Below, piece by piece: positions 20,430 to 37,388 of a stretch of 37,388 nucleotides of DNA. This DNA is from a virus. Taxonomy: Duplodnaviria > Heunggongvirae > Uroviricota > Caudoviricetes. The stretch lies in IMG/VR virus record IMGVR_UViG_2778261448_000003; one strand, given 5' to 3'. The notes beneath the pieces are model-generated. The model saw only the letters and a list, made by a program, of their open reading frames with translations. It had not been told where the DNA came from and made no database searches. The position numbers and the translations under genes are program-made. Numbering within the stretch: the stretch's first letter is position 1; each line of letters opens with the position of its first letter.

Positions 20430-20505
<76 letters not shown>

Positions 20506-20507
20506 AC

Positions 20508-20584: not shown

Positions 20585-20585
20585 T

Positions 20586-20661: not shown

Positions 20662-20687
20662 GGGCCGAAAATAATAATCAGATTAAA

Positions 20688-21814: not shown

Positions 21815-21845
21815 ATAAAAAAACCCGCTCGGAGGCGGGTTTTAT
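21815..21845 (-). terminator. Strong intrinsic terminator immediately downstream of the Q-like gene (tR'-like)
   Basis: AAAAAAACCCGCTCGGAGGCGGGTTTTAT: perfect GC hairpin with a T-run on the minus transcript. Confidence 0.75.
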
Positions 21846-21926
21846 ATTCTTTGCCATCGCGTACAAAATCAGCAAAATATCAAATATGCACGAAATATAT
21901 GCCTTTTAATCTACTTTTGCAATACT

Positions 21927-22601
21927 TTACAGTGAAAATGCCGCCTTTTGTTTTGAACGTGTTCTCGTCACGAACAATAAAGCCTCACTATCCAGCCGAT
22001 GAAAAGTGTGTTTCATTGCAACCCAGTGACCAGTAAATGTTTTGGACCAGTTTTTAGTTGTCACTCCCGCCAGTAATGCCAGCTCCTGGTATTCATAACC
22101 TTCCCCACCAAAAAGTTCTGCTTTTACTGCCTGCGCCGCCAGCCAGATTAATTTTTTCAGGCGTTCCTGCGTTTTCCCTGCAATTTTTCTGGTACCGGAT
22201 TGAGTATTAAATTCATTCCACGCCCACTGTGTTATCGCGATCTGATATTCCCAACAAATACTCCCGCTGTAACACCACAACAACCAGGCTTTATGATGTT
22301 CTTCAAGAGACAGAACAGCCCGCCGCCACGATGATGTCGAAAACTCAACCGGACTGACCAGAGGAATTGACGTCCCCTTCGCCAGCGATTGCTTTCCCGG
22401 GATTGGTGGATTATCCCGCGTTATCATTTTTCCAGTCACTTCATCGCGGTACCGGATTTTTTTTCGCCTGTAACGCCCTGTATCGAACATGGCATTCTCT
22501 TGCCAGGCTTCAAGCTGACCTTTTGTTGCCCCACTCAAATCAGCGGTGGCGATAATGAGCTGCTCACGCACAAACTGTAAATACTGGTTATTCATGCGCA
22601 C
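21927..22601 (-). CDS. Putative late-gene antitermination protein Q
   Basis: 224 aa ORF at the Q position (after RusA, before a tR'-like terminator, tRNAs and lysis genes); N-terminus recalled as a prophage Q-family protein, not verified. Confidence 0.6.
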   Translation of the reverse strand: MRMNNQYLQFVREQLIIATADLSGATKGQLEAWQENAMFDTGRYRRKKIRYRDEVTGKMITRDNPPIPGKQSLAKGTSIPLVSPVEFSTSSWRRAVLSLEEHHKAWLLWCYSGSICWEYQIAITQWAWNEFNTQSGTRKIAGKTQERLKKLIWLAAQAVKAELFGGEGYEYQELALLAGVTTKNWSKTFTGHWVAMKHTFHRLDSEALLFVTRTRSKQKAAFSL

Positions 22602-22957
22602 TCCAGTTCTGTGATTTTTATCCCCAGCCGCCCACCAGGAACGAGCTGACCGCGCACAATATTGATTTCATCAAACTGCTCGTCGTCTATAAGTAGTCCG
22701 GCATGCGTCAGCGCATCCAGTGGTGCCTTCAGGATATTGTCCAGGTCGCGGCGGCGCTTATCCGGTGGCTCCGCAATAATCTTTATCGCCAGCCTTCCGG
22801 ACAGGTTTAATTTCAACCGCTGCTGGCGAACAATTAGCGCCACATCATGGCGATAACGCTTTCCGGCCTCCGAGATGAAATACGTATTGCCATGACGTCG
22901 CCAGTAGGTATTCACCGTCGGCGGGTAAGGCAAAACAAATTCTATGCGTTCAGTCAT
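22592..22957 (-). CDS. rusA: Holliday junction resolvase RusA
   Basis: 121 aa; LPYPPTVNTYW ... PDKRRRDLDNILKAPLDALTHAGLLIDDEQ matches the RusA catalytic region. Confidence 0.9.
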   Translation of the reverse strand: MTERIEFVLPYPPTVNTYWRRHGNTYFISEAGKRYRHDVALIVRQQRLKLNLSGRLAIKIIAEPPDKRRRDLDNILKAPLDALTHAGLLIDDEQFDEINIVRGQLVPGGRLGIKITELECA

Positions 22958-24013
22958 TCATGCTTTCCACTTCAGGACACCCGAATTTCTCGCGTGCATT
23001 AAAAAACGAATCAGCAACAACAGCTGGCTGCCGTGTTTTTCTTCAAAATCTTTTACCCCGGCGTGCAGTTCGTTATGACATTTACGGCACAGCGGAATAA
23101 CAAACAAATCATCAGCCTTTGTTCCCATCCCTCCCAGTCCATGACCAATGATGTGATGCGGATCATCTGCCTGATTACCGCACGTCATGCATTTCTGCGT
23201 TTTTACCCAGCGCGTGTATACAGGCATCTCTTCCCGTTGTGGTTTCTGGCGCTGGAGATACTGAGCCGGTGACTCCGAATCAACGGCAATGCTTACCACC
23301 GTCTTTTCCTGTGGCGGGTTTTGCTGGTGGGCGTGAGGCAGCGGCGCAAGATTTTTTGTGCGCTGCTTCAGTATGCTGGTGGCGGTCTGCTCTCCCGGCA
23401 CGATGTCGCTTTCACGGTACATTGGGCGGATTTTTTCCGCACGCAACCCCAGCGAACGACGTAATACCGCTTCCGGTAGCGCGTCCGCCACCTGATTGCG
23501 GACCGCCCACCAGGATAATTCAGCCAGCGATAATTCCCGCTCCTGTGTGCCATTCATTGCGTGACGGATGACGTCAATCATCCATGCTGACAGGTTTTGT
23601 TGAGCAAGTTGCCCGAGTGACTCTGATGTCTGGTCGCGCAGCTGGTTGTCACAGTGCCAGCACAATACCATCGCGCCAGTACCGTAACGATGTATGACGG
23701 TTTCACTGTGATGGTAGTCACCATGAGGCCACTGGCAGGATTTAATATGACGCAGGAGCCAGTCAGACAATGCGCCTGCGCCGCCAGCAGCACGAATCAC
23801 CCGTTCGTCGCTGAAAAATGGCAGTAATGATTTATCTTCCATCAGTGGCTGGCGAACGGCAGGAACAATCCCGGATGGCAGACCGCGCATGCTTTTCGGT
23901 TCCGGCTCCACCAGCACTCGAGGGTTATGAAATACCTGCATGGATTCACGGCCCGGCTTTAGCACCACCAGCCCAAGTTCCGGTACCGGAACAGGTCGAA
24001 GTAATACCCGCAC
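22958..24013 (-). CDS. DUF968-type prophage protein with C-terminal HNH/zinc-finger-like motif
   Basis: 351 aa; C-terminal CMTCGN...DPHHIIGHG...CRKCHNELH; occupies the nin-region slot next to rusA as YdfU-type proteins do. Confidence 0.6.
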   Translation of the reverse strand: MRVLLRPVPVPELGLVVLKPGRESMQVFHNPRVLVEPEPKSMRGLPSGIVPAVRQPLMEDKSLLPFFSDERVIRAAGGAGALSDWLLRHIKSCQWPHGDYHHSETVIHRYGTGAMVLCWHCDNQLRDQTSESLGQLAQQNLSAWMIDVIRHAMNGTQERELSLAELSWWAVRNQVADALPEAVLRRSLGLRAEKIRPMYRESDIVPGEQTATSILKQRTKNLAPLPHAHQQNPPQEKTVVSIAVDSESPAQYLQRQKPQREEMPVYTRWVKTQKCMTCGNQADDPHHIIGHGLGGMGTKADDLFVIPLCRKCHNELHAGVKDFEEKHGSQLLLLIRFLMHARNSGVLKWKA

Positions 24014-24014
24014 G

Positions 24015-24293
24015 TTACCTCCAGATCCGTTGCTGGAATGTGCGGGACGGACGCGGTGGGCGTTCGGAGTAAGGAAGCCTGACGGAGATTATCCAGTGAC
24101 GATAATCGAGGCTGAGGGCTTTCTTAATCTCGTATCCGTGTCTGCGGTAGCACTGAATTAGCCATTCAGCTTGTTCTTCAGTACATGGGGGATGCTGGTA
24201 CCAATCAGATTTAAATGCGTGAGAGCGCCGCCCGTGCCTGCTGGCAAAGACGGCTGAATTATCAGAATTGTGTAATTTGGTATTGTGCGCCAT
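24015..24293 (-). CDS. Hypothetical nin-region protein (92 aa from MAHNTK)
   Basis: ORF 24015..24422 with a probable internal start; no family recognised. Confidence 0.4.
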   Translation of the reverse strand: MAHNTKLHNSDNSAVFASRHGRRSHAFKSDWYQHPPCTEEQAEWLIQCYRRHGYEIKKALSLDYRHWIISVRLPYSERPPRPSRTFQQRIWR

Positions 24294-24363
24294 CGGTTGT
24301 CTCTGCTGGCGCAGCAGGTGCCAGTTGTTCAGGCTGGCGTGCGAATTGTAAACCAGAATGCCA

Positions 24364-24392
24364 GGAAAAAACAAAACCCGCCGAAGCGGGTT
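24364..24392 (-). terminator. Intrinsic terminator downstream of hok (minus strand)
   Basis: CCCGC-CGAA-GCGGG hairpin followed on the minus strand by TTTTGTTTTTT. Confidence 0.7.
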
Positions 24393-24460
24393 AAGTGCGG
24401 GTGCGTTGAGGATGCCTGACACATCAGAGGTGGCGAGGGATTTCTCCCCCGCCTGGTCTC

Positions 24461-24616
24461 TTACTCCTCAGGTTCGTAAGCTGTGAAGACAGCGACCTCC
24501 GTCTGGCCGGTTCGGATTCGCACCTCGCAGAGGTCTTTCCTCGTTACCAGTGCCGTCACTATGACGGTTAAACAGATGACGATCAGGGCGATTAGCATCG
24601 CCTTTTGCTGCTTCAT
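24461..24616 (-). CDS. hok: Hok/Gef-family type I toxin (51 aa membrane peptide)
   Basis: Own translation: MKQQKAMLIALIVICLTVIVTALVTRKDLCEVRIRTGQTEVAVFTAYEPEE, matching HokD/RelF as recalled; absent from the ORF track because it is under 60 aa. Confidence 0.9.
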   Translation of the reverse strand: MKQQKAMLIALIVICLTVIVTALVTRKDLCEVRIRTGQTEVAVFTAYEPEE

Positions 24617-25249
24617 AGCCTGCTTCTCCTTGACCTTTCGGTCCGTAAGAGGCTAATCTCTATGTGTCGCATAGATATGGCCTCAGATTAATGTTAAGCG
24701 TCTTGCAGGACGCGTAATGTTAACTGGGGCTTTTCTCTATCTGCCGTTGGTGTTCATGCCCGAGGCAGATAGCCTCAAGCACCCACAGCCATTCTACTTA
24801 ACTACCGTTACCTCGCCAACATGAAATCAATCAGAAAGGCGAACCATAAGAACAATAACAACAATTAAATTCATTTTCTCAAATCCTGTTAACGACGCCC
24901 ATCCGACACTAACAACTTTCATTTATTATACTATTTCCCCATCGACGCTCTGCGTTGGCATAACACAAATCTGTCTGTCCGTTTGAGTAAAGAGCGGATA
25001 TCTGCAGTTTCAAAGAAACTGCGCATGCACACGAACTATCAAAGATAGTGATAACTGAGATAAAAACATATGGAAGCCTTCGGCATTTAAAAATAACAGC
25101 AAATCATATAAAAGGAAAGAGATAAGCAACATTTACATAACATGTATCACGATACGCCCCAGTGTTAATAAAAAGACTATCACTTTATTCTTTTATAATG
25201 TTAGTTTGCACTAGCAAGTGCCACTCCGAACAGAAAAAGGATACATGTA

Positions 25250-27061
25250 ATGAAGCTACAGCAATTTAATATTAAAAATTACAAGTCGATAAAAGATGAA
25301 ATAGAAGTATATATCGATGATATAGTTGTGCTAATTGGTCCAAATAACTCTGGAAAGTCAACAATATTAGATGCGTATGAAAAGTTTGCATCTTTAGGAT
25401 CAGCAAAAGGCCTGACTGCTCATGATTTTTATAACTCAGATATATCTATACCAATTGAAATGTGCGGAATTTTCACTGATATCACTGATGATGATATTCG
25501 TACATTAGGGGGAGAGAAATGGTTTTATAAAGATGATGCTCTTGACAGAAGAAATATGGCAAGAAAGTATGGGGGAGATTGGGAGAAAAATAATACACCA
25601 TTGGAAAGCAAACTCTATTATTGTGTTAAATGGGTTTGGTCACATCCAGAAAAAGCAGCCCAAAAACAATCCTATGGCCTTGATGATGCCTCTGGCAAAC
25701 GCATATTTATTGATGGGGGCTCTGGGGGACTTGACACACTACTACAAAGCCGAGTTCCTCAACCAATAAGAATAAGCCCAGATAAATCCATGGATGAAAC
25801 TAAAAAAATTATCATAAGTTTCTTAAAGGAAGATGCAAAAGATGAGTTACTGAAAACAGGGGAAAGTAAAGCTGATATAATACAGAAAATACAAGAGTTG
25901 ACAGACACTCTTATGAAAGATTCCAAATCAAAAATCGATGATCTTCTACAGCAGGTCTCCAAATCATCATCATCTGTTTTTCCTGGGCTAGAACTGGAAT
26001 TAAACATACTTTCCAAGGATCCCGTAGATGCGGATGTTATGGTTTCAGAATCTAACCTTACAGTGAAAATGGATGGGATAAATAGCTCTCTTCTCGAGAA
26101 CCAAGGTCACGGTGTTCGCCGCTCCGTTTTATGGTCTGCTTTGCAAATTTTGACTCACGAATCTCATGCACGAGATAAAATAAAAAAAGCGAAAGGTAAG
26201 CCTATCTCTGTTGAGAAAAAACAATATATTTTATTGATTGATGAGCCTGAATCATTTCTTCACCCTCCTATAATTAGAAGTGCGAGGGACTCGCTTTATG
26301 ATTTTGCAGCAAACAATGATAACTGGCAGGTGATGGCTACAACACACTCCCCTGTATTCATAGACTTATCCAAGAAGCACACGACTATAATTAGGATAGA
26401 AAAAGACAAATCTCTAAATAAAACAATATCTACAGATGAACTATCTTTTTCTGAAGAGGAAAAAGATAATATGAAAATGATAAGATTATGTAACCCAATG
26501 GTTAATGAGTTTTTCTTTTACGACAATATAATATTAGTTGAAGGACCAACTGAAAAAATCGTCATTAACAAAATATGTGATATTGTCGGAGTTGATTATC
26601 ATATCATTGACTGTTTAGGAAAAGGGAATATAAAAACATTTGCTAAAATATTAAATCAATTTAACGTTGAGTATATAGCAGTACATGACTCCGACATTCC
26701 AAAATGCTTAAAGCAAGGAAGCGTTTCAGGTAATGGAGCATGGGGTTCAAATGTATCCATAATGAACGAATGCTCTAAAAGTAAAAAACCAATGGTATTT
26801 ATTCAAATACCTCATTTCGAAGGACTGTTTTTTAAAAATTTCAATCCATCAAACAAAGTTGAAACAGTAACATCAGTTCTATCTAATAATTTAACACCAG
26901 AATACAAAGCAATATTTGATACATATAGCAGAATTTTAAACAAAGATCCTTCTGTTTTTATCAGCTCCAACGAAAAAATGATAGACATGTATCATGCATT
27001 TTATGCCAGTAATAAAAACCAAATTGAGACGCTAAAGAATCCTGAAATCTGGATCCTTTAA
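25250..27061 (+). CDS. OLD-family nuclease: N-terminal ABC-type ATPase fused to C-terminal Toprim domain (class-1, stand-alone)
   Basis: 603 aa; Walker A GPNNSGKST, Walker B/D-loop LLIDEPESFLHP, Toprim motifs LVEGPTE and HDSD; very AT-rich gene unlike the flanking prophage DNA. Confidence 0.8.
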   Translation: MKLQQFNIKNYKSIKDEIEVYIDDIVVLIGPNNSGKSTILDAYEKFASLGSAKGLTAHDFYNSDISIPIEMCGIFTDITDDDIRTLGGEKWFYKDDALDRRNMARKYGGDWEKNNTPLESKLYYCVKWVWSHPEKAAQKQSYGLDDASGKRIFIDGGSGGLDTLLQSRVPQPIRISPDKSMDETKKIIISFLKEDAKDELLKTGESKADIIQKIQELTDTLMKDSKSKIDDLLQQVSKSSSSVFPGLELELNILSKDPVDADVMVSESNLTVKMDGINSSLLENQGHGVRRSVLWSALQILTHESHARDKIKKAKGKPISVEKKQYILLIDEPESFLHPPIIRSARDSLYDFAANNDNWQVMATTHSPVFIDLSKKHTTIIRIEKDKSLNKTISTDELSFSEEEKDNMKMIRLCNPMVNEFFFYDNIILVEGPTEKIVINKICDIVGVDYHIIDCLGKGNIKTFAKILNQFNVEYIAVHDSDIPKCLKQGSVSGNGAWGSNVSIMNECSKSKKPMVFIQIPHFEGLFFKNFNPSNKVETVTSVLSNNLTPEYKAIFDTYSRILNKDPSVFISSNEKMIDMYHAFYASNKNQIETLKNPEIWIL

Positions 27062-27092
27062 TTTTTAATGTTGTAATAAATATTATTTAGTA

Positions 27093-27120
27093 ACAACCCT
27101 CTATTGAGGGTTGTTTTTAA
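27093..27120 (+). terminator. Intrinsic terminator after the OLD-family gene
   Basis: ACAACCCTC-TATTG-AGGGTTGT followed by TTTTT. Confidence 0.65.
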
Positions 27121-27233
27121 TCATAAGAAATCTGACACACTCTATCATACTAAAAATAACACAACATGCATACAAAGTGTTTATATGCATAGACATATTA
27201 CCTCACATCTGAGTCAATACACTTTAATTTCAT

Positions 27234-27656
27234 TTACCGAACCAATTTCTTATTACTGGTATGATAAAAGTTCAACACACGCCGCATAACATCGCTCTTC
27301 CGGCACTCGCGACAGATTATGTTTAGACGCCTGTCATAGCGACGTATTTCTCCGTCTGGTAATGACCAGATAAGGTCCGGATCAACCACAGATGGTTTCT
27401 TCAGCTTTGCCCTCGAGAGTTTTTTGCGGGCGTTTTGCCAGTCTTTACGTGCCTGCTCCGACGGGAATAACCCGTAGCCAGAGTTGTATACATAACCGCT
27501 CGCAACCAGCTCTCTGGCAAGAACGCTCATCAGATATCTTGTCGCACCTGTCTTGGCTTCCAGTTGACGTAACGTCTCGCGCCCACTCTGGCGTACAAGT
27601 TCAACAACCTGCCCTTTAATTTTTTCACGCTCTTCTTGTGTAAAAACTTTTGCCAC
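27234..27656 (-). CDS. Hypothetical HTH-containing protein downstream of the replication gene (140 aa, GTG start)
   Basis: ORF in the early-right operon after the O-like gene; probable HTH around TLRQLEAKTGATRYLMSVLAREL. Confidence 0.5.
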   Translation of the reverse strand: MAKVFTQEEREKIKGQVVELVRQSGRETLRQLEAKTGATRYLMSVLARELVASGYVYNSGYGLFPSEQARKDWQNARKKLSRAKLKKPSVVDPDLIWSLPDGEIRRYDRRLNIICRECRKSDVMRRVLNFYHTSNKKLVR

Positions 27657-27696
27657 AACTCCTCCTGATAATTACCTCATGAGCTGAAATAAACAC

Positions 27697-28773
27697 TTAC
27701 CCCCTGAAGCCCGGTGGAATTTCGGTATCCGGTTCAGAAATATGATTCACACAACGCTGGTTGTTCGTGCCGCTTACCTGGAGCAACCAGGGGTTTTCAA
27801 AATTCCGGTCCGGTCCAAAAAACGTCGTCGCCCGCTGAACAAATTCCGTTCCCGTTTTCCCGGTAACCGCTAGGTATCTTGCGTAACGCCTCACGCCATC
27901 CAGCATTGCCTCTGGTGGCACCCCCTCGCGTAATCTGGCCTTCCAGGCACTGAAAGCGGATTTCTTCGGGTTTGCCCCGGCACGCAACGGGTACTCCCGC
28001 CAGACCTGTTCGAACACATCCGGATAATCCACTCGTCCCACAGACTGCCCGGTGTTTTCCGGGACTACCCGATCGGCTTCCCGCTGAATGGCGGAATCGG
28101 CTTCAGGCTGCTGCAGTTGGTGTGATTGCTCCGGCCTTGCGGTCATCACCTGCTGCACAGCGCCCGAATCGGCTTTCAGCGCATACGCTGAATCGGCTTC
28201 CGGTGTCGTGCCTGCTGGCTGACCAAGATTGACGGTCTGAACATCCCCTGCCTGGTTCGTGGCGTTTTTTACGCCATGGACCATAGTGTTTTGATCTTCT
28301 TGATCTGTATCTTTATCTGTATCTTTATCTGTCGTGACTCGTCGTGACATGTGCGTGACATTTCGTGACGCGCCGTGACAATCGCCATTTTGTTCCCGCT
28401 TTCTTTCCCTCTCTCGCTGCGCCCTCTTGCGCTCTGCAGGAGATTTTGCGGTTTGCGAAATATTGCCGTTGTCCTCTTTAAGCACCTGGCGTTTTTCCCA
28501 TCCAGTGATTAAATCACCATCAAGTACCCGCCCCTGCATCGTCTGCAAAATTGAATCAATTACCTCTTCTGTCACGTCGAGCGCACTTGCCAAATCTTCT
28601 GTCGTGACATCAATGTGACCTCGCGTGACATTTCGTGACGCGCTCACCAGGAGGTGGATATACACTGCCATCACTGTTGCAATTGGCTGCCCTGACACCC
28701 TGGCAATTGTTCGCCACTTAGGGTCATTTGGCATGTCATGCCATAATCTGAGCCAGGCGTTAGCCATACTCAC
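27697..28773 (-). CDS. Replication initiation/replisome organiser protein (lambda O-like role), with internal iterons
   Basis: 358 aa; conserved phage replication-protein C-terminal region (VWREYPLRAG...FSAWKARLREGVPPEAMLDGVRRYARYLAVTGKTGTEFVQRATTFFGP); two iteron clusters inside the ORF. Confidence 0.7.
   Translation of the reverse strand: MSMANAWLRLWHDMPNDPKWRTIARVSGQPIATVMAVYIHLLVSASRNVTRGHIDVTTEDLASALDVTEEVIDSILQTMQGRVLDGDLITGWEKRQVLKEDNGNISQTAKSPAERKRAQRERERKREQNGDCHGASRNVTHMSRRVTTDKDTDKDTDQEDQNTMVHGVKNATNQAGDVQTVNLGQPAGTTPEADSAYALKADSGAVQQVMTARPEQSHQLQQPEADSAIQREADRVVPENTGQSVGRVDYPDVFEQVWREYPLRAGANPKKSAFSAWKARLREGVPPEAMLDGVRRYARYLAVTGKTGTEFVQRATTFFGPDRNFENPWLLQVSGTNNQRCVNHISEPDTEIPPGFRG
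28300..28640. repeat. Putative origin of replication: two clusters of CGTGAC iterons (28331-28380, five copies at ~10-bp spacing; 28600-28640, four copies) plus a tandem TGTATCTTTATC repeat
   Basis: Direct repeats visible in sequence, inside the O-like gene as lambda ori lies inside O. Confidence 0.65.
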
Positions 28774-28838
28774 CTCTTCTGATACCGAATCTTTTTACTC
28801 ACGAGTTGCCGGAAGCGATTCGATATGGCTATTGTCAT

Positions 28839-29264
28839 TCAATGTACTGCCACAGCATTTCCTGCCGGGCCACCACGGTTCATCTGATTGAAACCGGCGA
28901 TTGCCACTGCGACAAAATCATCAGCGTCTCTCACCAATCGCTCCCGCGTCTCCACCAGCTCCCGAAAATAAGCTGAACTGTGGCTGCGCATTCTGGCCAC
29001 CAGCAAAGGCGGCATTGCCTTTTCGATCGCTGGTAACAACGCCTGAATTTTTTCAACTGCATCAGGGGTGTCTTTCTCTACCCAGCGGAAAATTTTCTGG
29101 GTATTGCGAGCCAGGGCTTCCGGATGGCTGTCGTCATACAGTTCAGGAAACGTCATACCCAACTCAAAATAAGCCTGGGTTATTCCAGCTGCCGGAACTT
29201 TTTCACCATCCGGATGCGCCCAGGCATTCATCGCCATGCGGATGTGCTCATGTTTGATTTTCAT
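28839..29264 (-). CDS. YdaT-like protein (Rac-type; cII-position gene)
   Basis: 141 aa starting MKIKHEHI, recalled as the Rac YdaT N-terminus; immediately downstream of the Cro-like gene. Confidence 0.55.
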   Translation of the reverse strand: MKIKHEHIRMAMNAWAHPDGEKVPAAGITQAYFELGMTFPELYDDSHPEALARNTQKIFRWVEKDTPDAVEKIQALLPAIEKAMPPLLVARMRSHSSAYFRELVETRERLVRDADDFVAVAIAGFNQMNRGGPAGNAVAVH

Positions 29265-29563
29265 GAATCAACTCCATCAGATAAGCATGCACTACAATCA
29301 CCTTCAGCATGAACTACATGTGTTTGCCCCAAACGAATGCCGCTCGCATACTCAGGCCAAATAAGCTCCCAATCATGGGGTCGTAGCTCCGCCCTACTTA
29401 CTTGGCCTTCCGTCGCAGATTCGATCATAAGGGCACGGGTTGGAGATATAGCTGCTCGTCCAGACGCCATTTGCGATAAGTAAGATGGCGATACACCAAG
29501 TCTGGCCGCGAATTTCTTAGCATCACCAACCCTCAATGATTTAATAAACTCTTTTAATGTCAT
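29261..29563 (-). CDS. Cro/YdaS-like HTH transcriptional regulator
   Basis: 100 aa; HTH segment FAARLGVSPSYLSQMASGR; first gene of the rightward early operon, divergent from the repressor gene. Confidence 0.7.
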   Translation of the reverse strand: MTLKEFIKSLRVGDAKKFAARLGVSPSYLSQMASGRAAISPTRALMIESATEGQVSRAELRPHDWELIWPEYASGIRLGQTHVVHAEGDCSACLSDGVDS

Positions 29564-29660
29564 ACCTTCCTCGGTTTAGTGTTTTTTTGCGAGTTTAGTG
29601 TTTAATAAACCATTAAGTCAAGTATTTGCTTGTTTAGTGATTACTAAAGATAATTACCAC
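29564..29660. promoter_or_regulatory. OR-like operator/promoter region: three copies of GTTTAGTG(T/A)TT between the divergent cro-like and repressor genes; candidate pRM-like promoter (-35 TTGCTT, -10 GATAAT) that would give a leaderless repressor mRNA
   Basis: Repeats at ~29574, 29593 and 29632; promoter hexamers spaced 17 bp apart ending just before the ATG at 29661. Confidence 0.55.
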
Positions 29661-30032
29661 ATGCAAAAAAAAGAAATTCGCCGTTTACGTCTCAAGGAGT
29701 GGTTTAAAGATAAAACTCTGCCACCCAAAGAGAAGAGCTACCTATCTCAACTAATGAGTGGGAGAGCATCGTTTGGAGAAAAGGCTGCCAGAAGAATAGA
29801 GCAAACATACGGGATGCCGGAAGGGTATCTGGATGCGGAATACGCAGAACAACCGGAGGTTTCTCCACCACATGCAGGGTTAACGCCTAATCAACTGGAA
29901 TTATTGCAGATTTTTTCAGCCTTCCCTGAGGATGAGCAACGCCAGATAATCAGCGAGTTAAAGCAGAAAAAAGAATCAATGGAAGATCTCATAGCGAGAT
30001 GGATTGCGGCGCAAAAATGCCGCCGCGCCTGA
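29661..30032 (+). CDS. CI/RacR-like prophage repressor (HTH, no peptidase domain)
   Basis: ORF 29598..30032; start placed at MQKKEIRR; HTH around KSYLSQLMSGRASFGEKAARRIE; sits in the cI position. Confidence 0.6.
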   Translation: MQKKEIRRLRLKEWFKDKTLPPKEKSYLSQLMSGRASFGEKAARRIEQTYGMPEGYLDAEYAEQPEVSPPHAGLTPNQLELLQIFSAFPEDEQRQIISELKQKKESMEDLIARWIAAQKCRRA

Positions 30033-30052
30033 GTTATAAAACCGGAGGAAAC

Positions 30053-30244
30053 ATGAATAGAGCCCTTTCACCAATGGTTTCTGAATTTGAAACCATTGAA
30101 CAAGAAAACAGTTACAACGAATGGCTGCGTGCGAAAGTAGCAACGAGCCTTGCAGATCCGCGCCCAGCAATTCCCCATGACGAAGTTGAGCGCAGAATGG
30201 CAGAACGCTTTGCTAAAATGCGCAAGGAACGGAGCAAGCAGTAA
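30053..30244 (+). CDS. ParD/RHH-like antitoxin (63 aa)
   Basis: Start MNRALSP preceded by GGAGGA RBS; stop is 1 nt before the toxin ATG; sequence character of ParD-type antitoxins. Confidence 0.6.
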   Translation: MNRALSPMVSEFETIEQENSYNEWLRAKVATSLADPRPAIPHDEVERRMAERFAKMRKERSKQ

Positions 30245-30245
30245 A

Positions 30246-30524
30246 ATGTTACCCGTGTTATGGCTTGAAAGCGCAGATACCGACCTAGATGATATAACTA
30301 GTTATATTGCTCGTTTCGACATAGATGCGGCTGAACGCTTATGGCAGCGATTAAGGGGTTGTGTGCTGCCGTTATCCGAACATCCGTATTTATACCCACC
30401 AAGCGACAGAGTACCCGGCTTGCGTGAGATTGTAGCCCACCCTAACTATATAATTCTATACCGCGTAACAACATCAAGCGTTGAAGTAGTAAACGTGATC
30501 CACGCAAGACGCCAGTTTCCCTAA
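30246..30524 (+). CDS. ParE/RelE-family toxin (92 aa)
   Basis: Start MLPVLWLESADTDLDDITSYIARF...; C-terminal YIILYRVTTSSVEVVNVIHARR typical of ParE/RelE plasmid-stabilisation toxins. Confidence 0.65.
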   Translation: MLPVLWLESADTDLDDITSYIARFDIDAAERLWQRLRGCVLPLSEHPYLYPPSDRVPGLREIVAHPNYIILYRVTTSSVEVVNVIHARRQFP

Positions 30525-30589
30525 CTTTCACTACCAATAGAAACATAGCAACCGCAACGACTTTATCAAAAGCGTTGTGTTTGTTACGC

Positions 30590-30640
30590 TCCGTGGTTTA
30601 GTTTTTACTTGACTTAAGTTTAATGTTTATTAAACTAAAA
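30590..30640 (+). promoter_or_regulatory. OL/pL-like region: GTTTAGT operator-like repeats overlapping a sigma70-like promoter (-35 TTGACT, -10 TAAACT)
   Basis: TGGTTTAGTTTTTACTTGACTTAAGTTTAATGTTTATTAAACT; shares the repeat core with the OR region; precedes the plus-strand early-left genes. Confidence 0.5.
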
Positions 30641-30815
30641 ATACCAACCCACCCCGAGCCACAGAACGCCAGGCAATACTTCGAGTTATCCGGCAGTGGT
30701 CAGGGGATAAGTAGCCAGCCCGAGGCGTAAGAACATGACGGCAGGGTTCAACTTTAATAACTATGCAGCAGGTTTTTGTTCCGCTACCCCAGCGTTAAGG
30801 GGAAATGAGGTCAAC

Positions 30816-30971
30816 ATGGATACTATCGATCTTGGCAACAACGAATCTCTGGTGTGCGGCGTGTTTCCCAACCAGGACGGCACATTCACCGCGATGACGT
30901 ATACCAAAAGCAAAACGTTTAAAACCGAAAATGGTGCCCGTCGCTGGCTGGAAAGAAACTCAGGTGAGTGA
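30816..30971 (+). CDS. Small early-left protein (51 aa, YdaF-like)
   Basis: Start MDTIDLG with AAGGGGA RBS; first gene after the pL-like promoter. Confidence 0.5.
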   Translation: MDTIDLGNNESLVCGVFPNQDGTFTAMTYTKSKTFKTENGARRWLERNSGE

Positions 30972-30972
30972 T

Positions 30973-31101
30973 ATGGATTTCGACACAATCATGAAAAAGG
31001 CTTACGAAGAATACTTCGAAGGCCTTGCCGAAGGCGAAGAAGCTCTCAGCTTCAGTGAGTTTAAACAGGCGCTTTCCAGTTCGGCAAAATCTAACGGCTG
31101 A
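30973..31101 (+). CDS. Small early-left protein (42 aa, YdaG-like; not in ORF track)
   Basis: Own translation MDFDTIMKKAYEEYFEGLAEGEEALSFSEFKQALSSSAKSNG; start 2 nt after the upstream stop. Confidence 0.4.
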   Translation: MDFDTIMKKAYEEYFEGLAEGEEALSFSEFKQALSSSAKSNG

Positions 31102-31130
31102 TAAGCGAAACAGCACCGCGAGGAATCAGT

Positions 31131-31349
31131 ATGCAGAAACGAGAACCCGTCATCATCGCGCCAGACTATACCGATGATGAACTTTATGAGTGGATGCGCC
31201 AGAAAATTAAGGCAGCGCAGGATCTGAAATGGGCCAATGAAGCCAGGGCTAAGCAAGCTGAAAATCTGTCCGCTCTGGAGCAGGATATCACCAATCTGGA
31301 AAAAGCAGCGGCATTGAGCATTGCCAGAATGATTACATACCCGCGTTAA
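31131..31349 (+). CDS. Hypothetical early-left protein (72 aa)
   Basis: ORF in the pL operon; no family recognised. Confidence 0.45.
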   Translation: MQKREPVIIAPDYTDDELYEWMRQKIKAAQDLKWANEARAKQAENLSALEQDITNLEKAAALSIARMITYPR

Positions 31350-31371
31350 TAGCTAACCAACGAGGCTAATA

Positions 31372-31692
31372 ATGGAATTTAAAGATTTACCAATGCAATT
31401 CCAGGAAATGGCAGCGAATATAGTTCGTTCCCAACTGGCGACTCTTGACCTGAGTACCGTAGAAAAAGAAACCATCGATACTATATCCGGTAACGTGCGT
31501 CGTGCCTTTATCGGTCTGTACGAAGAGAAGCAGCTCTCTGATAACCAGGATTTACATGAAAAATACTTCCTGGATCTAATGGACATCATTGATAAGGGGT
31601 TTGGCTTGTTAATGAAAAAGAAAGGGATTCGAATAGACCCCCTTGAAAATTACTTTGCAACAAAAAGCATTAATTCTTTTGATTCAAAATAA
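31372..31692 (+). CDS. Hypothetical early-left protein (106 aa)
   Basis: ORF with AGGCTAATAATG context; no family recognised. Confidence 0.45.
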   Translation: MEFKDLPMQFQEMAANIVRSQLATLDLSTVEKETIDTISGNVRRAFIGLYEEKQLSDNQDLHEKYFLDLMDIIDKGFGLLMKKKGIRIDPLENYFATKSINSFDSK

Positions 31693-31945
31693 GAGAATTA
31701 ATTACAGACTTAACATGCTCTTTCTCATGATTGAAGCTCTCATGATTGAAAGTGCCGGGTTGAAGCGAGTCGATATAATCAACAAGACTCTGTCGTACGA
31801 CTTCATTTTTATCCATAACAGATGCAAGAAATGAAATTGCTAAAAGAGTTATATCACTACGCGCCGCAGCATGCTGCAATGCTTTATCAAAATTATTAAT
31901 CTGGCGTATCAGGGAGTTAATGATTTCATCATTTTCAGTCGACAT
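31670..31945 (-). CDS. Hypothetical AT-rich antisense-oriented small protein (91 aa from MSTENDEII)
   Basis: Start preceded by GGAGGG RBS; AT-rich composition contrasts with neighbours; convergent with the pL operon. Confidence 0.5.
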   Translation of the reverse strand: MSTENDEIINSLIRQINNFDKALQHAAARSDITLLAISFLASVMDKNEVVRQSLVDYIDSLQPGTFNHESFNHEKEHVKSVINSLILNQKN

Positions 31946-32506
31946 TTCACCCTCCTGAGGGTTGGTGATTAAGGAGTTCTCCACGGGTGAGGTGGAGTGC
32001 GTGCGCCGGACACGGGTGAGCATACGGCACTGACAGTTTACTGAAAGGATATTTCCCTGAAAAGTCAGACCATAACGCGAAAGCGCACGGCGAGGTAGCT
32101 GGTTCATAGATAGCCTGTCGTTAAATTTTCGTCGACCGTGCGCTTCCGGTTGTGGCACTCCGCGAAATGGCGCGACGGTAAGTATGGCGGGGTTATTCCT
32201 TCCCCGTTGAGGACACCGGGTTGTCAGGTTGACCATACGCTTAAGTGACAACCCCGCTACAACGCCCTCTGTTATCAATTTTCTGGTGACGTTTGGCGGT
32301 ATCAGTTTTACTCCGTGGCTGCTCTGCCGCCCTTTTTAAAGTGAATTTTGTGATGCGGTGAATGCGGCTAAGCGCACGCGGAACAGTTAAAACCAAAAAC
32401 AGTGTTATGGGTGGATTCTCTGTATCCGACGTTAATTGTTAACTGGTTAACGTCACCTGGAGGCACCAGGCACCGCATCACAAAATTCATTGTTGAGGAC
32501 GCGATA

Positions 32507-32695
32507 ATGGAAACGTTATTACCAAACGTTAATACGTCTGAAGGTTGTTTTGAAATTGGTGTCACTATCAGTAACCCTGTATTTACTGAAGATGCCATTA
32601 ACAAGAGAAAACACGAACGGGAGTTATTAAATAAAATATGCATTCTTTCAATGCTGGCCCGTTTACGTCCGATACAAAAAGGATGCTGGCAATGA
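32507..32695 (+). CDS. Hypothetical small protein (62 aa)
   Basis: Start METLLPNV; stop overlaps the start region of the next small gene. Confidence 0.4.
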   Translation: METLLPNVNTSEGCFEIGVTISNPVFTEDAINKRKHERELLNKICILSMLARLRPIQKGCWQ

Positions 32696-32883
32696 ATACA
32701 GCATTTGCACTTGTTCTGACAGTTTTTCTTGTTTCCGGAGAGCCAGTTGATATTGCAGTCAGTGTTCACAGAACAATGCAGGAATGTATGGCAGCAGCAA
32801 CCGAACAGAAAATTCCCGGTAACTGTTACCCGGTCGATAAAGTTATTCACCAGGATAGTAACGAAATCCCGGCAGGTCTTTAA
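32683..32883 (+). CDS. Small secreted or membrane-anchored protein (66 aa; N-terminal signal peptide, two Cys)
   Basis: MLAMNTAFALVLTVFLVSGEP hydrophobic leader then a hydrophilic domain. Confidence 0.45.
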   Translation: MLAMNTAFALVLTVFLVSGEPVDIAVSVHRTMQECMAAATEQKIPGNCYPVDKVIHQDSNEIPAGL

Positions 32884-32975
32884 AACAGTTCCGTAATAAA
32901 CATCCGATTTCATTCTTATATGCCAGCAATGGCAGGGATTTGTTCACCATTAAATCTGTAATGAGGTAAAACAAA

Positions 32976-35447
32976 ATGAGTAAAGTCTTTATTTGCGCCG
33001 CCATTCCGGACGAACAGGCAATAAAGGAAGAAGGTGCAGTCGCTGTAGCTACTGCCATTGAAGCCGGTGATGAACGTCGCGCCCGCGCAAAATTTCACTG
33101 GCAATTCCTGGAACATTATCCGGCTGCTCAGGACTGCGCTTATAAATTTCTTGTCTGCGAGGATAAACCCGGTATACCCCGCCCTGCCCTCGATTCCTGG
33201 GATGCTGAATATATGCAGGAAAACCGCTGGGATGAGGAGTCTGCTTCCTTTGTCCCGGTTGAGACTGAATCAGATCCGATGAACGTCACTTTTGACAAGC
33301 TGGCCCCTGAAGTACAGAACGCTGTCATGGTTAAGTTCGACACATGTGAAAACATCACTGTTGATATGGTGATTAGCGCACAGGAATTGTTGCAGGAAGA
33401 CATGGCAACATTCGACGGCCATATCGTTGAAGCGTTGATGAAAATGCCAGAAGTAAACGCCATGTATCCGGAGCTTAAGCTGCATGCCATCGGGTGGGTT
33501 AAGCATAAATGTAAGCCTGGTGCCAAATGGCCCGAAATTCAGGCAGAGATGTGCATCTGGAAAAAACGTCGCGAAGGTGAACGCAAGGAAACCGGAAAAT
33601 ACACGTCTGTTGTTGATCTCGCCCGCGCCAGACCCAATCAACAGAACACTGAAAATTCAACAGGAAAAATCAACCCGGTCATTGCTGCCACTCATCGCGA
33701 ATACAAGCAGACATGGAAAACACTGGATGACGAACTGGCCTACGCTCTCTGGCCTGGTGATGTGGATGCCGGAAACATTGACGGCAGCATCCATCGCTGG
33801 GCAAAAAATGAAGTTATCGACAACGACCGCGAAGACTGGAAGCGTATCTCGGCATCAATGCGCAAACAGCCTGATGCCCTTCGCTACGACCGCCAGACTA
33901 TTTTTGGCCTTGTCCGTGAACGTCCGATCGACATTCACAAAGACCCTGTGGCACTGAACAAATACATTACTGAATACCTGACTACAAAGGGCGTGTTTGA
34001 AGATGAAGGAAGAAATCAGAGCGCAACTGATACTCTCTCGTCGCCAGTACCAGAAACTGATGCAGTGGAAACGGCAATTCCGGACAACGAAAAAACCGAA
34101 TGCAAAGTGGAAGTCGAACCATCTGTAGAGCGTGAGGGGCCGTTCTACTTCCTCTTCACCGACAAGAATGGCGAAAAATACGGTCGCGCAAACAAACTTT
34201 CTGGTCTGGATAAGGCGCTGGCTGCCGGGGCTACTGAAATCACGAAAGAAGAATATTTCGCCCGCAAAAACGGTACATACTCAGGTTCACAACAAAATAC
34301 TGGTGCATCTGACACGACCGCACAACCAGAGCCGGTAAAAGTTACCGCTGACGAAGTAAACAAAATTATGCAGGCAGCCAATATCAGCCGGCCTGACGCC
34401 GATGAACTGCTTGCAGTATCACGTGGTGAATTTGTTGCAGGGATTAGCGATCCGAATGATCCGAAATGGGTGAAGGGGATTGAAACCCGCGATTCTGTGA
34501 ACCAGAACCAGCAAGAAACGGAACAGAACGACCAGAAAGCGGAACAAAACAGCCCAAATGCGTTACAAAATGAGCCAGAAACGAAACAATCCGAACCAGT
34601 AGCGCAACAGGAACCGGAAAAAGTCTGCACCGCCTGCGGTCAGAGCGGTGGCGGCAACTGCCCTGATTGTGGCGCGGTGATGGGCGACGCAACATACCAG
34701 GAAACATTCGATGAAGAGAATCAGGTTGAAGTTCAGGAAAATGATCCGGAGGAAATGGAAGGCGCTGAACATCCACACAAGGAGAACCCTGGCGGCAATC
34801 AGCATCACGCCAGCGATAATAAAACTGGCGAGGCGACAGATCCCTTAATTAAGGTGAATGGTCATTATAAGCTCACATCCACCAGCAGAGCGGGGATTCA
34901 TCTGATGATCGACCTTGAAACAATGGGAAAAAATCCCGATGCCCCGATTATCTCAATAGGCGCAATATTTTTCGATCCACAAACCGGAGAGATGGGGCCG
35001 GAATTTAGCAAGACCATCGATCTGGATACGGCTGGCGGAGTCATTGATCGTGACGTCATTAAATGGTGGCTGAAGCAATCACGTGAAGCGCAGTCTGCCA
35101 TTATGACCGATGAAATCCCGTTAGATGATGCACTACTGCAATTGCGGGAATTTATCGACGAAAACTCCGGTGAATTTTTTGTTCAGGTCTGGGGTAATGG
35201 GGCCAACTTCGACAACGTGATTTTACGCCGTTCATACGAACGACAGGGTATCCCCTGCCCGTGGCGCTACTGCAACGATCGCGATGTACGCACAATCGTT
35301 GAGCTGGGGAAAGCCATAGACTTCGATGCCAGAACTGCTATCCCATTCGAAGGTGAGCGCCATAATGCACTTGATGACGCTCGTTACCAGGCAAAATACG
35401 TTTCAGCTATCTGGCAAAAACTGATCCCGAGTCAGGCTGATTTTTAA
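32976..35447 (+). CDS. RecE (exodeoxyribonuclease VIII)-like early protein with C-terminal DEDD-type 3'-5' exonuclease domain
   Basis: 823 aa; central LLAVSRGEFVAGISDPNDPKWVKGIETRD segment recalled from Rac RecE; C-terminal DLETMG...NGANFD...HNALDDARY is a DnaQ-like DEDDh signature; Cys4 motif CTACG...CPDCG. Confidence 0.6.
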   Translation: MSKVFICAAIPDEQAIKEEGAVAVATAIEAGDERRARAKFHWQFLEHYPAAQDCAYKFLVCEDKPGIPRPALDSWDAEYMQENRWDEESASFVPVETESDPMNVTFDKLAPEVQNAVMVKFDTCENITVDMVISAQELLQEDMATFDGHIVEALMKMPEVNAMYPELKLHAIGWVKHKCKPGAKWPEIQAEMCIWKKRREGERKETGKYTSVVDLARARPNQQNTENSTGKINPVIAATHREYKQTWKTLDDELAYALWPGDVDAGNIDGSIHRWAKNEVIDNDREDWKRISASMRKQPDALRYDRQTIFGLVRERPIDIHKDPVALNKYITEYLTTKGVFEDEGRNQSATDTLSSPVPETDAVETAIPDNEKTECKVEVEPSVEREGPFYFLFTDKNGEKYGRANKLSGLDKALAAGATEITKEEYFARKNGTYSGSQQNTGASDTTAQPEPVKVTADEVNKIMQAANISRPDADELLAVSRGEFVAGISDPNDPKWVKGIETRDSVNQNQQETEQNDQKAEQNSPNALQNEPETKQSEPVAQQEPEKVCTACGQSGGGNCPDCGAVMGDATYQETFDEENQVEVQENDPEEMEGAEHPHKENPGGNQHHASDNKTGEATDPLIKVNGHYKLTSTSRAGIHLMIDLETMGKNPDAPIISIGAIFFDPQTGEMGPEFSKTIDLDTAGGVIDRDVIKWWLKQSREAQSAIMTDEIPLDDALLQLREFIDENSGEFFVQVWGNGANFDNVILRRSYERQGIPCPWRYCNDRDVRTIVELGKAIDFDARTAIPFEGERHNALDDARYQAKYVSAIWQKLIPSQADF

Positions 35448-35508
35448 TGTTCAACTGTCGCCAGTTGTCGTTGGTATTCTGCAACTGGCGCGTTCCGGAG
35501 TGATAGCC

Positions 35509-35778
35509 ATGAGCGAACAGTACCTGATAACGCTCGATGAGTGGAAGCCAAAACGGTTCAGTCTCCCAATAACAAACACTACCCTGGTGAAATACGGAAA
35601 ACTAGGATACATCGTTCCAAGACCACAAAAAATTCGTGGGCGTTGGCTGATAGATCGCCGGGCAGTATTTGTTGGACCTGGTGAAACGGGAATTGCGCCG
35701 GAAATTCATACTGGCGATGATGATGCACTGAAGGAGATTTTAACTCATGTCACCGAGGCCACGAAAAAACAGCACTGA
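35509..35778 (+). CDS. xis: Excisionase-like DNA-binding protein (Xis)
   Basis: Small basic protein immediately upstream of and overlapping int, in the lambda xis position. Confidence 0.6.
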   Translation: MSEQYLITLDEWKPKRFSLPITNTTLVKYGKLGYIVPRPQKIRGRWLIDRRAVFVGPGETGIAPEIHTGDDDALKEILTHVTEATKKQH

Positions 35779-36865
35779 CGTAACCGGTCTTTACGAAAAG
35801 TTTGATCGCAGAACTGGCAGGGTTTACTACCAGTATAAAAACCCTGTGACTGGAAAATTTCACGGTCTCGGAACAGACAAAGGCAAAGCAGAAAAAATCG
35901 CTTCCACAGCCAATCAGCGAATAGCTGCAGCAGAAGCTGAATATTTCATGCGCAAAATTGATGAAAGTCCGTCAGCAACAAAACGTCGGGGTATCAGATT
36001 AAAGGCATGGGTTGATCGATATCTGAAAATACAGGACGCGCGACTGAAAAATGGAGATATTGCAGCAACAACTCACAAAGAAAAAGCCCGAATGGCTGCA
36101 TACCTGGTTTCCCGTCTGGGAAACCACCCATTGAAAGAACTGGAAGTAAGAGACTTTGCATTAATACTGGATGAGTGGCTGGATAAAGACATGGTCAGCA
36201 CAGCGAGAGTAAATCGTGGATTATGGGTTGATATTTATAAAGAAGCACAGCATGCAGGGGAAGTTCCTCCTGGATGGAATCCTCCGGAGGCTACCCGTAA
36301 ACCGATCCCTAAAGTAACCAGAGCCAGACTCACCCTGGAGGACTGGCAAAAAATTTACAATTCAACACCAGAAAAACACTTTATCCGTAACGCAATGCTT
36401 CTTGCGATTGTTACTGGTCAGCGCCGTGATGACATTTGCCACATGCGTTTTTCAGATGTGTGGAACGAACACTTGCATATCACCCAGGGAAAAACCGGAA
36501 TGCGTCTGGCGTTACCGCTTACGCTACGCTGTGATGCCATTGGAATATCGCTAAAAGAAGTGATTGATGGATGCAAGGACAGAATATTGAGTCCATACCT
36601 GATTCATAGTCGGCACCAGAAACAACCAAAACCAATGAGTAAAGATAACCTGAGCGACTACTTTGCTAAAGCGCGGGATCTGGCAGGAATAACTCCACCA
36701 GCAGGAAAAACACCACCAACATTTCATGAACAACGCTCCCTGTCAGAACGACTGTACCGCGCACAGGGTATCGATACAAAAACATTACTGGGACATAAAG
36801 TCCAAGCAACCACCGATCGTTATAACGATACTCGTGGTCAGGAATGGGTTAAATTGGTTGTTTGA
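35747..36865 (+). CDS. int: Tyrosine integrase (lambda Int family)
   Basis: 372 aa; C-terminal catalytic region LAIVTGQRRDD...HEQRSLSERLY...LLGHK...TTDRYNDTRGQEW aligns with lambda Int R-H-R-Y active-site segments. Confidence 0.9.
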   Translation: MSPRPRKNSTDVTGLYEKFDRRTGRVYYQYKNPVTGKFHGLGTDKGKAEKIASTANQRIAAAEAEYFMRKIDESPSATKRRGIRLKAWVDRYLKIQDARLKNGDIAATTHKEKARMAAYLVSRLGNHPLKELEVRDFALILDEWLDKDMVSTARVNRGLWVDIYKEAQHAGEVPPGWNPPEATRKPIPKVTRARLTLEDWQKIYNSTPEKHFIRNAMLLAIVTGQRRDDICHMRFSDVWNEHLHITQGKTGMRLALPLTLRCDAIGISLKEVIDGCKDRILSPYLIHSRHQKQPKPMSKDNLSDYFAKARDLAGITPPAGKTPPTFHEQRSLSERLYRAQGIDTKTLLGHKVQATTDRYNDTRGQEWVKLVV

Positions 36866-36938: not shown

Positions 36939-37388
36939 GGTAATGACTCTAACTTATTGATAGTGTTTTATGTTCAGATAATGCCCGATGACTTTGTCAT
37001 GCAGCTCCACCGATTTTGAAAACGACAGCGACTTCCGTCCCAGCCGTGCCAGGTGCTGCCTCAGATTCAGGTTATGCCGCTCAATTCGCTGCGTATATCG
37101 CTTGCTGATTACGTGCAGCTTTCCCTTCAGGCGGGATTCATACAGCGGCCAGCCATCCGTCATCCATATCACCACGTCAAAGGGTGACAGCAGGCTCATA
37201 AGACGCCCCAGCGTCGCCATCGTGCGTTCACCGAATACGTGCGCAACAACCGTCTTCCGGAGACTGTCATACGCGTAAAACAGCCAGCGCTGGCGCGATT
37301 TAGCCCCGACATAGCCCCACTGTTCGTCCATTTCCGCGCAGACGATGACGTCACTGCCCGGCTGTATGCGCGAGGTTACCGACTGCGG
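36939..37388 (-). mobile_element. IS1 (partial; right end at ~36939, continues beyond the window)
   Basis: Terminal sequence GGTAATGACTC(T)AACTTATTGATAGTGTTTTATGTTCAGATAATGCCCG matches the IS1 end as recalled; contains an insB-type ORF. Confidence 0.85.
36954..37331 (-). CDS. insB: IS1 transposase InsB segment
   Basis: 125 aa [48 protein letters not shown]... recognised as IS1 InsB. Confidence 0.85.

Follow-up and report, generated by a model that had tools for sequence, protein, structure and literature searches.

A ydfE-type gene of a lambdoid prophage combines a RecE-like scaffold with a predicted DnaQ-type DEDDh exonuclease head and has no recognisable annealase partner

The recombination modules of lambdoid phages were classified in a Genome Research 2025 paper, which reported DnaQ-like 3'-5' nucleases as members of these modules and described a Tritos type, counted in four phages, that has a nuclease and many Chi sites and does without an annealase, an SSB or a RecBCD inhibitor (PMC12315714). 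Phages lacking an anti-RecBCD function were proposed there to use Chi and host RecBCD to obtain packageable concatemers (PMC12315714). Here we analysed a 37,388-nucleotide stretch of caudoviral DNA (IMG/VR record IMGVR_UViG_2778261448_000003, hereafter the window), which is part of a lambdoid prophage and contains an exonuclease gene at 32976-35447. This gene is the intact form of ydfE, a pseudogene of the Qin prophage of Escherichia coli K-12, and its product resembles in different parts the RecE (exonuclease VIII) of the Rac RecE/RecT system, the stand-alone DnaQ-like exonucleases of lambdoid phages and DexA (exonuclease A) of phage T4. With the Tritos type, the window shares a nuclease as the only module component, the lack of annealase, SSB and inhibitor, and many Chi sites. 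The gene family had been catalogued before, and so had the arrangement without an annealase. What is added here is a recombination junction at codon ~625, a two-by-two modularity of scaffolds and heads, and an association between head type and annealase over ~19 contexts; the main text of the classification paper is silent on the scaffold-plus-DEDDh architecture and on the head swap.

The open reading frame (ORF) encodes 823 amino acids, starts with ATG, has a GAGG 9 nucleotides upstream (32963-32966), and is covered end to end by PHROG 2082 (1-823 of 823). It matches at 99.9% nucleotide identity the RefSeq 'exonuclease' gene of the ETEC1749 prophage, and RefSeq labels the gene either as an exonuclease or as a 3'-5' exoribonuclease-domain protein. 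In two pairwise comparisons, the ratio of nonsynonymous to synonymous substitution rates (dN/dS) was 0.20-0.24 for the whole ORF, 0.12-0.21 for the head and 0.06 for amino acids 1-97; the ORF appears intact and constrained by purifying selection. Three parts make up the protein, a YdfE/RecE-type scaffold (amino acids 1-473), a linker with a Cys4 motif (474-625) and a DEDDh head (~638-823), laid out in the window as follows:

32976-35447, plus strand: ydfE-type exonuclease gene, full length, the last cistron before xis-int
32976-34394, plus strand: N-terminal scaffold, amino acids 1-473, Pfam YdfE_N type, from PF27430 hits of homologues
34395-34850, plus strand: RecE-like central linker, amino acids 474-625, Pfam YdfE_C type, 74% identical to amino acids 471-614 of Rac-SA53 RecE
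34626-34670, plus strand: Cys4 motif CTACGQSGGGNCPDC, amino acids 551-565 (C551, C554, C562, C565), a putative zinc knuckle within the linker
34849-34850, no strand: mosaic junction at codon ~625, the end of DNA homology with the PD-(D/E)XK plus recT allele
34879-34886, minus strand: Chi octamer in the exonuclease gene (TSTS codons, linker), in the orientation taken as active
34899-35414, plus strand: DEDDh 3'-5' exonuclease head, amino acids 642-813, Rv2179c-like, DnaQ/DexA type (Pfam E = 2.6e-66)
34911-34928, plus strand: Exo I motif DLETMG, amino acids 646-651 (D646, E648)
35196-35213, plus strand: Exo II motif NGANFD, amino acids 741-746 (D746)
35361-35387, plus strand: Exo III motif HNALDDARY, amino acids 796-804 (H796, D801)

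The Pfam family PF16473 (Rv2179c-like) matches amino acids 642-813 with 223.1 bits against a gathering cutoff of 27, over model positions 2-177 of 177, while a Pfam scan of the protein returned no match to PF12684, the PD-(D/E)XK nuclease domain (DUF3799) of RecE. A tblastn search of the window with the RecE-type nuclease head of a related locus, L007, likewise found nothing. The five DEDDh residues D646, E648, D746, H796 and D801 align with T4 DexA D7, E9, D119, H186 and D191. In an AlphaFold2 model of amino acids 435-823, the head (634-823) was predicted with per-residue confidence scores (predicted local distance difference test, pLDDT) of 82-97, and its top Foldseek matches in the PDB were the DexA structures 8ken and 8kel (E = 2e-9, target-normalised template modelling score 0.62-0.69), followed by RNase T, the Cas2 DnaQ domain and Orn, each at E <= 1e-6. 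By sequence, DexA was the sole solved relative in a phmmer search of the PDB (E = 1.4e-5, 26% identity). Since these are the best structural matches, the C-terminus has a DnaQ-type fold and not the PD-(D/E)XK fold of RecE. A preliminary description of this DNA, made from the letters alone, had pointed to DEDDh motifs (DLETMG and HNALDDARY) at the C-terminus, and both were found there, with Pfam, catalytic residues and predicted structure in agreement. With a complete DEDDh active site, the head is predicted to be a Mg2+-dependent 3'-to-5' exonuclease.

DexA, the best solved relative with DEDDh residues corresponding one to one, differs in being a 227-amino-acid stand-alone protein with extra loops from a virulent phage. 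Closer in sequence are the stand-alone DnaQ-like exonucleases of lambdoid phages (mEp235, epsilon34/Sf6 type, phiSTEC1575), which share the head at 58-61% identity to amino acids 638-823, catalytic residues included, but have 182-190 amino acids and no scaffold; the mEp235 gene also has an annealase neighbour, within a Rad52-SSB-Exo-Abc2 module. Rv2179c, the founder of PF16473, shares the Pfam family and ranked outside the 50 best fold matches. This stand-alone cellular exoribonuclease has neither phage context nor scaffold, and its biochemistry has reportedly been characterized.

The resemblance to RecE lies outside the catalytic domain. Amino acids 474-624 are 74% identical to amino acids 471-614 of Rac-SA53 RecE, including the Cys4 motif, with weaker similarity at 262-336, and the claim that the central region resembles Rac RecE therefore held for the linker and needed correction in that the likeness is limited to the non-catalytic scaffold. 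The NCBIfam RecE equivalog model NF007259 scored 283.5 bits against a cutoff of 1269, with only amino acids 444-626 matching model positions 437-603. Pfam found no N-terminal PF06630 (Exonuc_VIII) in the window protein, a domain present in the Rac-SA53, Gifsy-2 and Klebsiella RecE proteins, and PF12684 is carried by these three and by the L007 protein. We considered the window protein as a RecE family member and rejected this assignment because three defining RecE features that were tested are absent; the score lies below the equivalog cutoff, and PF12684, PF06630 and an adjacent RecT are all lacking. Compared with Rac RecE/RecT, the window thus has a DEDDh head, presumed to act 3'-5', in place of a 5'-3' PD-(D/E)XK head, and neither PF06630 nor RecT.

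The linker is acidic (net charge -9 to -11 per segment), Q-rich and mostly predicted to be disordered. Model confidence falls below a pLDDT of 50 on either side of the Cys4 motif and rises to 67-76 at the motif itself, which has short strands. A zinc-ribbon-like Cys4 motif had been noted in the preliminary description and is indeed present, with zinc binding putative; it is common to Rac-SA53 RecE and the L007 allele, occurs in 119 of 120 close homologues, and is missing from the Gifsy-2, Klebsiella, ZF40 and BUCT708 relatives. For the N-terminal scaffold, precomputed Pfam hits to YdfE_N (PF27430) and YdfE_C (PF27432) exist on homologues 93-95% identical to the window protein, and its AlphaFold2 model had a mean pLDDT of 67.8 with confidently folded pieces at 1-97, 240-340 and 390-432. 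Remote relatives of the scaffold occur in the RecE proteins of Gifsy-1/2, HK225 and Klebsiella phages.

More distant proteins with a YdfE_N scaffold occur in Stenotrophomonas phage BUCT708 (710 amino acids; L008, 3974-6672) and Pectobacterium phage ZF40 (721 amino acids; L011, 3974-6651). Pfam recognised no nuclease domain in either, each gene is followed by a Sipho_Gp157 gene, and they may be the nuclease-less 'RecE-2' proteins of the lambdoid classification (PMC12315714). Proteins labelled Klebsiella pneumoniae (P0121-P0143) are ~90% identical to the N-terminus of the BUCT708 protein; for two different hosts this is unexpectedly close, and contamination or a wrong host label may be the cause.

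A search with amino acids 1-640 retrieved 900-amino-acid E. coli proteins in which a scaffold 93-95% identical to that of the window protein carries a PF12684 PD-(D/E)XK head instead. In one such case, locus L007, the upstream operon matches that of the window, and the 900-amino-acid gene is followed by recT-lar-ydaC-xis-int at ttcA; an allele with the window's own scaffold thus has a RecE-type head and a recT gene. By blastn, the window and L007 are 96.4% identical over 31960-34849, that is, from ~1 kb upstream of the gene, and share nothing beyond; protein identity falls from ~0.9 before amino acid ~625 to less than 0.2 after it. This abrupt end of homology indicates that the DEDDh head is a swapped module and that recombination at codon ~625 separates the two alleles, a literal version of the domain swap suggested in the preliminary description. 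The exchange is also not confined to one scaffold, as an exhaustive representative search found at least 10 clusters (at the 50% identity level, 641-901 amino acids) that join a PF06630 RecE-type N-terminus to an Rv2179c-like head. Two scaffolds (YdfE_N and PF06630) and two heads (PF12684 and PF16473) therefore exist in all four combinations.

The Chi octamer inside the gene (34879-34886) lies 30 nucleotides beyond the mosaic junction, with a matching gene offset in mEp460, Tritos and the P0060 loci. We considered this site as an explanation of the junction and rejected it, since the octamer belongs to the segment that the two alleles do not share, and the exchange stimulated by Chi takes place on the far side of the site. 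Diverged DEDDh-headed genes likewise contain a Chi a short distance 5' of the head.

The stop codon of the exonuclease gene lies only 52 bases before the xis ORF at 35500, with no gene between them. Searches of the whole window by tblastn with four RecT proteins, lambda Bet and a Rad52/Sak-type annealase gave nothing better than E = 0.05, and the same was true of SSB, Abc2, Gam, lambda Exo and Gp157 (GamL and Mu Gam were not queried); Pfam and PHROG scans of the early-left ORFs found no annealase, SSB or RecBCD inhibitor. Nowhere in the window was there a match of the RecT, Bet, Rad52 or Erf type. The absence of a RecT/Bet partner before xis, which had been proposed, was thereby borne out within the window and extends to DEDDh-headed versions in general. 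In all contexts examined, namely the window, ETEC1749, mEp460, Tritos, six P0060 loci and the diverged P0363, P0366, P0374 and P0373, DEDDh-headed genes have xis/int directly 3' and annealase-free flanks of 4-12 kb, and the complete Tritos genome gave no annealase match. PD-(D/E)XK-headed genes, by contrast, were followed by RecT in 4/4 contexts (Rac-SA53, L007, Gifsy-2 and Klebsiella phi12.4), and 1731 of the 1741 genomes with a match of any kind to the nuclease-recT junction had it intact.

The window contains 12 Chi octamers (GCTGGTGG), compared with 1.39 expected for this part of the prophage, and none of 100 shuffles reached 12. Nine are on the minus strand, which is 'top' in lambda-map orientation and taken as active, and three on the other. 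All 12 fall within 17417-36702, the non-structural half (GC content 0.467, against 0.525 for the rest), whereas the head and tail genes, which span 17 kb, contain none. The Tritos genome, similarly, has nine on the top strand and two on the bottom strand, and it carries the exonuclease gene at 91.6% nucleotide identity in the order dicB-ydfD-exo-xis-int. With no annealase, SSB or RecBCD inhibitor and a Chi-rich active strand toward the non-structural end, the window fits the Tritos-type module.

Upstream and downstream neighbours of the exonuclease gene were identified as follows:

32281-32332, plus strand: DicF small RNA (Rfam RF00039, 75 bits)
32507-32695, plus strand: dicB (Pfam DicB, E = 5.8e-37; annotation of the near-identical ETEC1749 prophage)
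32692-32883, plus strand: ydfD (DUF1482), the directly upstream cistron (Pfam DUF1482, E = 7.2e-25)
35500-35778, plus strand: excisionase, directly downstream (Pfam Exc, E = 7.8e-5; ETEC1749 annotation)
35747-36865, plus strand: lambda-type integrase (Pfam Arm-DNA-bind_1 and Phage_integrase)

This arrangement matches that of the K-12 Qin prophage (dicF-dicB-ydfD-ydfE-int), and Tritos has the same order. The K-12 ydfE pseudogene (b1577) is cut by IS2 (IS2E) and lacks the linker and the nuclease head; over the surviving 255 amino acids it is 96% identical to the window protein, so that the window gene is the complete copy of a gene that K-12 retains in truncated form, among the same neighbours. 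In K-12, the CI-like protein DicA represses the dicBF transcript, which begins upstream of ydfA and also covers ydfDE (PMC10448788). In a promoter and terminator scan of the region before the window gene, promoter-like counts were no higher than in shuffled sequences. The exonuclease gene is the distal cistron of a repressor-controlled, dicBF-type early-left operon, and would therefore be expressed on induction or infection.

The gene is widespread. Of 5426 complete E. coli genomes, 4070 (~75%) matched a 1-kb probe spanning the linker-DEDDh junction at a coverage of 80% or more, at a median of two and up to nine places per genome, and 3533 matched the whole gene at this coverage; the classification paper, as noted, counted four phages of the Tritos type. 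It is also present in phages mEp460, Evi, Tritos, HannyBb, PhiR42_1 and the PPompW group, of which the first five are viable phages. Among the claims of the preliminary description, the head swap and the missing partner thus stand, while any rarity or novelty implied by it does not, as this is one of the commonest E. coli prophage genes, represented in RefSeq, PHROG 2082, the Pfam families YdfE_N/YdfE_C and the published Tritos type (PMC12315714). It is, however, often mislabelled 'exodeoxyribonuclease VIII/RecE' although it lacks the RecE nuclease and a RecT partner. A correct label would avert wrong inferences on the recombination capacity of prophages, for example in the prophage pools of enterohaemorrhagic E. 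coli or in mining for recombineering systems.

The reading that we tentatively prefer is that the protein is an end-processing accessory in an annealase-free phage that relies on host RecBCD, Chi and RecA. Once made after induction or infection, it would use Mg2+ to digest DNA from 3' ends in the 3'-to-5' direction, and to these ends the scaffold, shared with a RecE 5'-3' nuclease, would bring the head. It would need no phage annealase, as it would not be half of a single-strand-annealing pair, and might process ends by trimming 3' tails or flaps or by blunting them. The phage itself, without Red/RecET-type annealing or a RecBCD inhibitor, would obtain packageable concatemers through host RecBCD-Chi-RecA recombination. 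DNA-end metabolism is favoured by three features, the place of the gene in the operon, its RecE-type scaffold and the abundance of Chi in the genome, and a role on DNA is further supported by the 58-61% identical stand-alone homologues within the mEp235 module.

Several points weigh against this preferred reading. Homology and genomic setting are the basis for the proposed substrate (DNA or RNA), polarity and role; PF16473 takes its name from an RNase (Rv2179c), and the next-best folds after DexA are RNase T and Orn. Fold comparison of the scaffold returned no informative structural relative and no recognisable DNA-binding or partner-binding fold. 3'-5' exonucleases acting on single-stranded DNA usually inhibit recombination (PMC12315714), so that a pro-recombination role is not obvious, and one- and two-gene Rec modules were called 'somewhat suspect' by the same authors (PMC12315714). 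Lastly, the association of head type with a partner comes from a sample of ~15 DEDDh and four PD-(D/E)XK contexts plus the junction counts, and not from a full census.

These points leave room for other functions. The early-left operon is full of host-manipulating products, DicF, DicB and YdfD (PMC10448788), and the head could instead be an anti-defence or host-takeover nuclease that destroys immune nucleic acid (signalling oligonucleotides, retron multicopy single-stranded DNA, guide RNAs) or host DNA, with the scaffold as a mere carrier. DEDDh folds such as Orn, RNase T and the Cas2 DnaQ domain act on small oligonucleotides, T4 DexA scavenges host DNA (PMC12153337), and the missing annealase fits a role other than recombination. 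We nevertheless regard this as unlikely, since a PADLOC scan for defence systems gave only a weak, generic DEDDh match (E = 1e-4), the scaffold is 96% identical in DNA to that of a bona fide RecE/RecT recombination allele, the stand-alone homologues sit within recombination modules, and no result suggests a particular target or singles out anti-defence. Activity on RNA is somewhat less probable still in our judgement. Such a 3'-5' exoribonuclease would trim or degrade phage or host transcripts, or processed dicBF mRNA, and could be argued from the founding of the Pfam family on the Mycobacterium tuberculosis RNase Rv2179c, from the close folds of RNase T and Orn, and from the exoribonuclease names frequent in RefSeq; these names, however, are automatic transfers from the Pfam name. 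DexA, the solved protein nearest to the head in sequence as well as in fold, is a DNase; scaffold and gene position are those of the DNA enzyme RecE, and in recombination modules the stand-alone homologues are placed between SSB and Abc2.

EcD, a DexA homologue of E. coli, was reported to degrade T4 DNA in vitro and, from a plasmid, to protect cells against T4; according to the same study, Escherichia is where DexA homologues of bacteria are found most often (PMC12153337). The head, with its conserved DEDDh residues, might accordingly be an HREX/EcD-kind exclusion nuclease that digests the incoming 5-hydroxymethylcytosine (5hmC) DNA of T-even phages and protects the lysogen, in a prophage that has other defence cargo, including an OLD nuclease, and a DicB of a kind known to block some phages. 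EcD, known here from its primer-derived termini, appears to be a stand-alone head; its N-terminus MIDTET resembles LMIDLET in the window protein, and its C-terminus ..IPETYD resembles ..LIPSQADF. These termini (HAK9828821.1) had no match among the loci or 360 proteins compared, and the 20-mer of the reverse primer had one chance match among the genome contigs, in a Firmicute. The window protein differs from EcD at the residues said to define its behaviour. The residues proposed to recognise 5hmC, DexA W152 and D169, align with C766 and A780, in a loop where the alignment is uncertain at 26% identity, and the W152-equivalent position is variable across the family (H, W, Y, C); the tetramer residue D90, which is Ala in EcD, corresponds to Asp718. 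In lysogens, moreover, the operon is repressed; the gene is its distal cistron and has no promoter-like site of its own, which argues against constitutive expression. Because of the C766/A780 alignment and this repression, exclusion of T-even phages seems quite improbable. We give hardly any credence to a functionless chimera, a relic of illegitimate or homologous prophage exchange hitch-hiking between useful genes. Its origin was mosaic, many copies lie in defective prophages, the K-12 copy is an IS2-cut pseudogene, and minimal Rec modules are suspect to the authors of the classification (PMC12315714). This view is contradicted by selection on the intact ORF (dN/dS 0.06-0.21 in folded domains) and by the occurrence of the gene in the viable phages mEp460, Evi, Tritos, HannyBb and PhiR42_1; in addition, all catalytic residues are kept, and at least 10 diverged clusters, on two scaffolds, preserve the architecture.

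A broader proposal, which we hold as doubtful, is that RecE-type scaffolds of either kind (YdfE_N or PF06630) are general platforms with interchangeable heads, and that the DEDDh form represents an unrecognised annealase-independent way of handling DNA ends. The DEDDh form may work together with host RecBCD/Chi/RecA, for instance if it made 3' tails blunt for RecBCD loading, or may be an early anti-defence nuclease. If true, this proposal would provide a function for an enzyme found in about three quarters of E. coli genomes and explain the pattern over ~19 contexts, in which PD-(D/E)XK heads occur with RecT and DEDDh heads without an annealase. The natural head swap on a near-identical scaffold is a ready-made experiment on the role of the RecE N-terminal scaffold, and could also show how annealase-free, Chi-rich lambdoid phages process DNA ends.

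Elsewhere in the window, a 603-amino-acid OLD-family nuclease (25250-27061, plus strand; AAA_15 ATPase and OLD-like TOPRIM, PADLOC Old E = 3.4e-73) lies in an island of 33-35% GC between nin-type and replication genes; it is absent from the similar ETEC1749 prophage and looks like defence cargo. A PaaA2/RelB-type antitoxin and a ParE/RelE-type toxin (29999-30524, plus strand) are directly downstream of the repressor and head the early-left operon, and the same pair is present in L007 and L014. The early region is otherwise 98-99.7% identical to that of ETEC1749, but ~550 bp (31393-31942) are unmatched there and overlap a 106-amino-acid ORF (PHROG 6937) and a 202-amino-acid minus-strand ORF without a family match. 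A sok antitoxin RNA (24614-24784, minus strand; Rfam RF01794, 101 bits) shows that the nin region includes a hok/sok module. Three tRNA genes (20355-20661, minus strand) lie upstream of the Q antiterminator region, and their ETEC1749 counterpart is annotated with tRNA-Arg and tRNA-Ile; between this cluster and the lysis genes is a DDE_Tnp_1 (IS4/IS5-type) transposase ORF (18349-19467, plus strand). Just after int, an IS1 segment (36939-37388) abuts the prophage end, and the matching IS1 of ETEC1749 lies ~4 kb further on and is inverted; the border between the prophage and potCD may thus have been rearranged through IS1.

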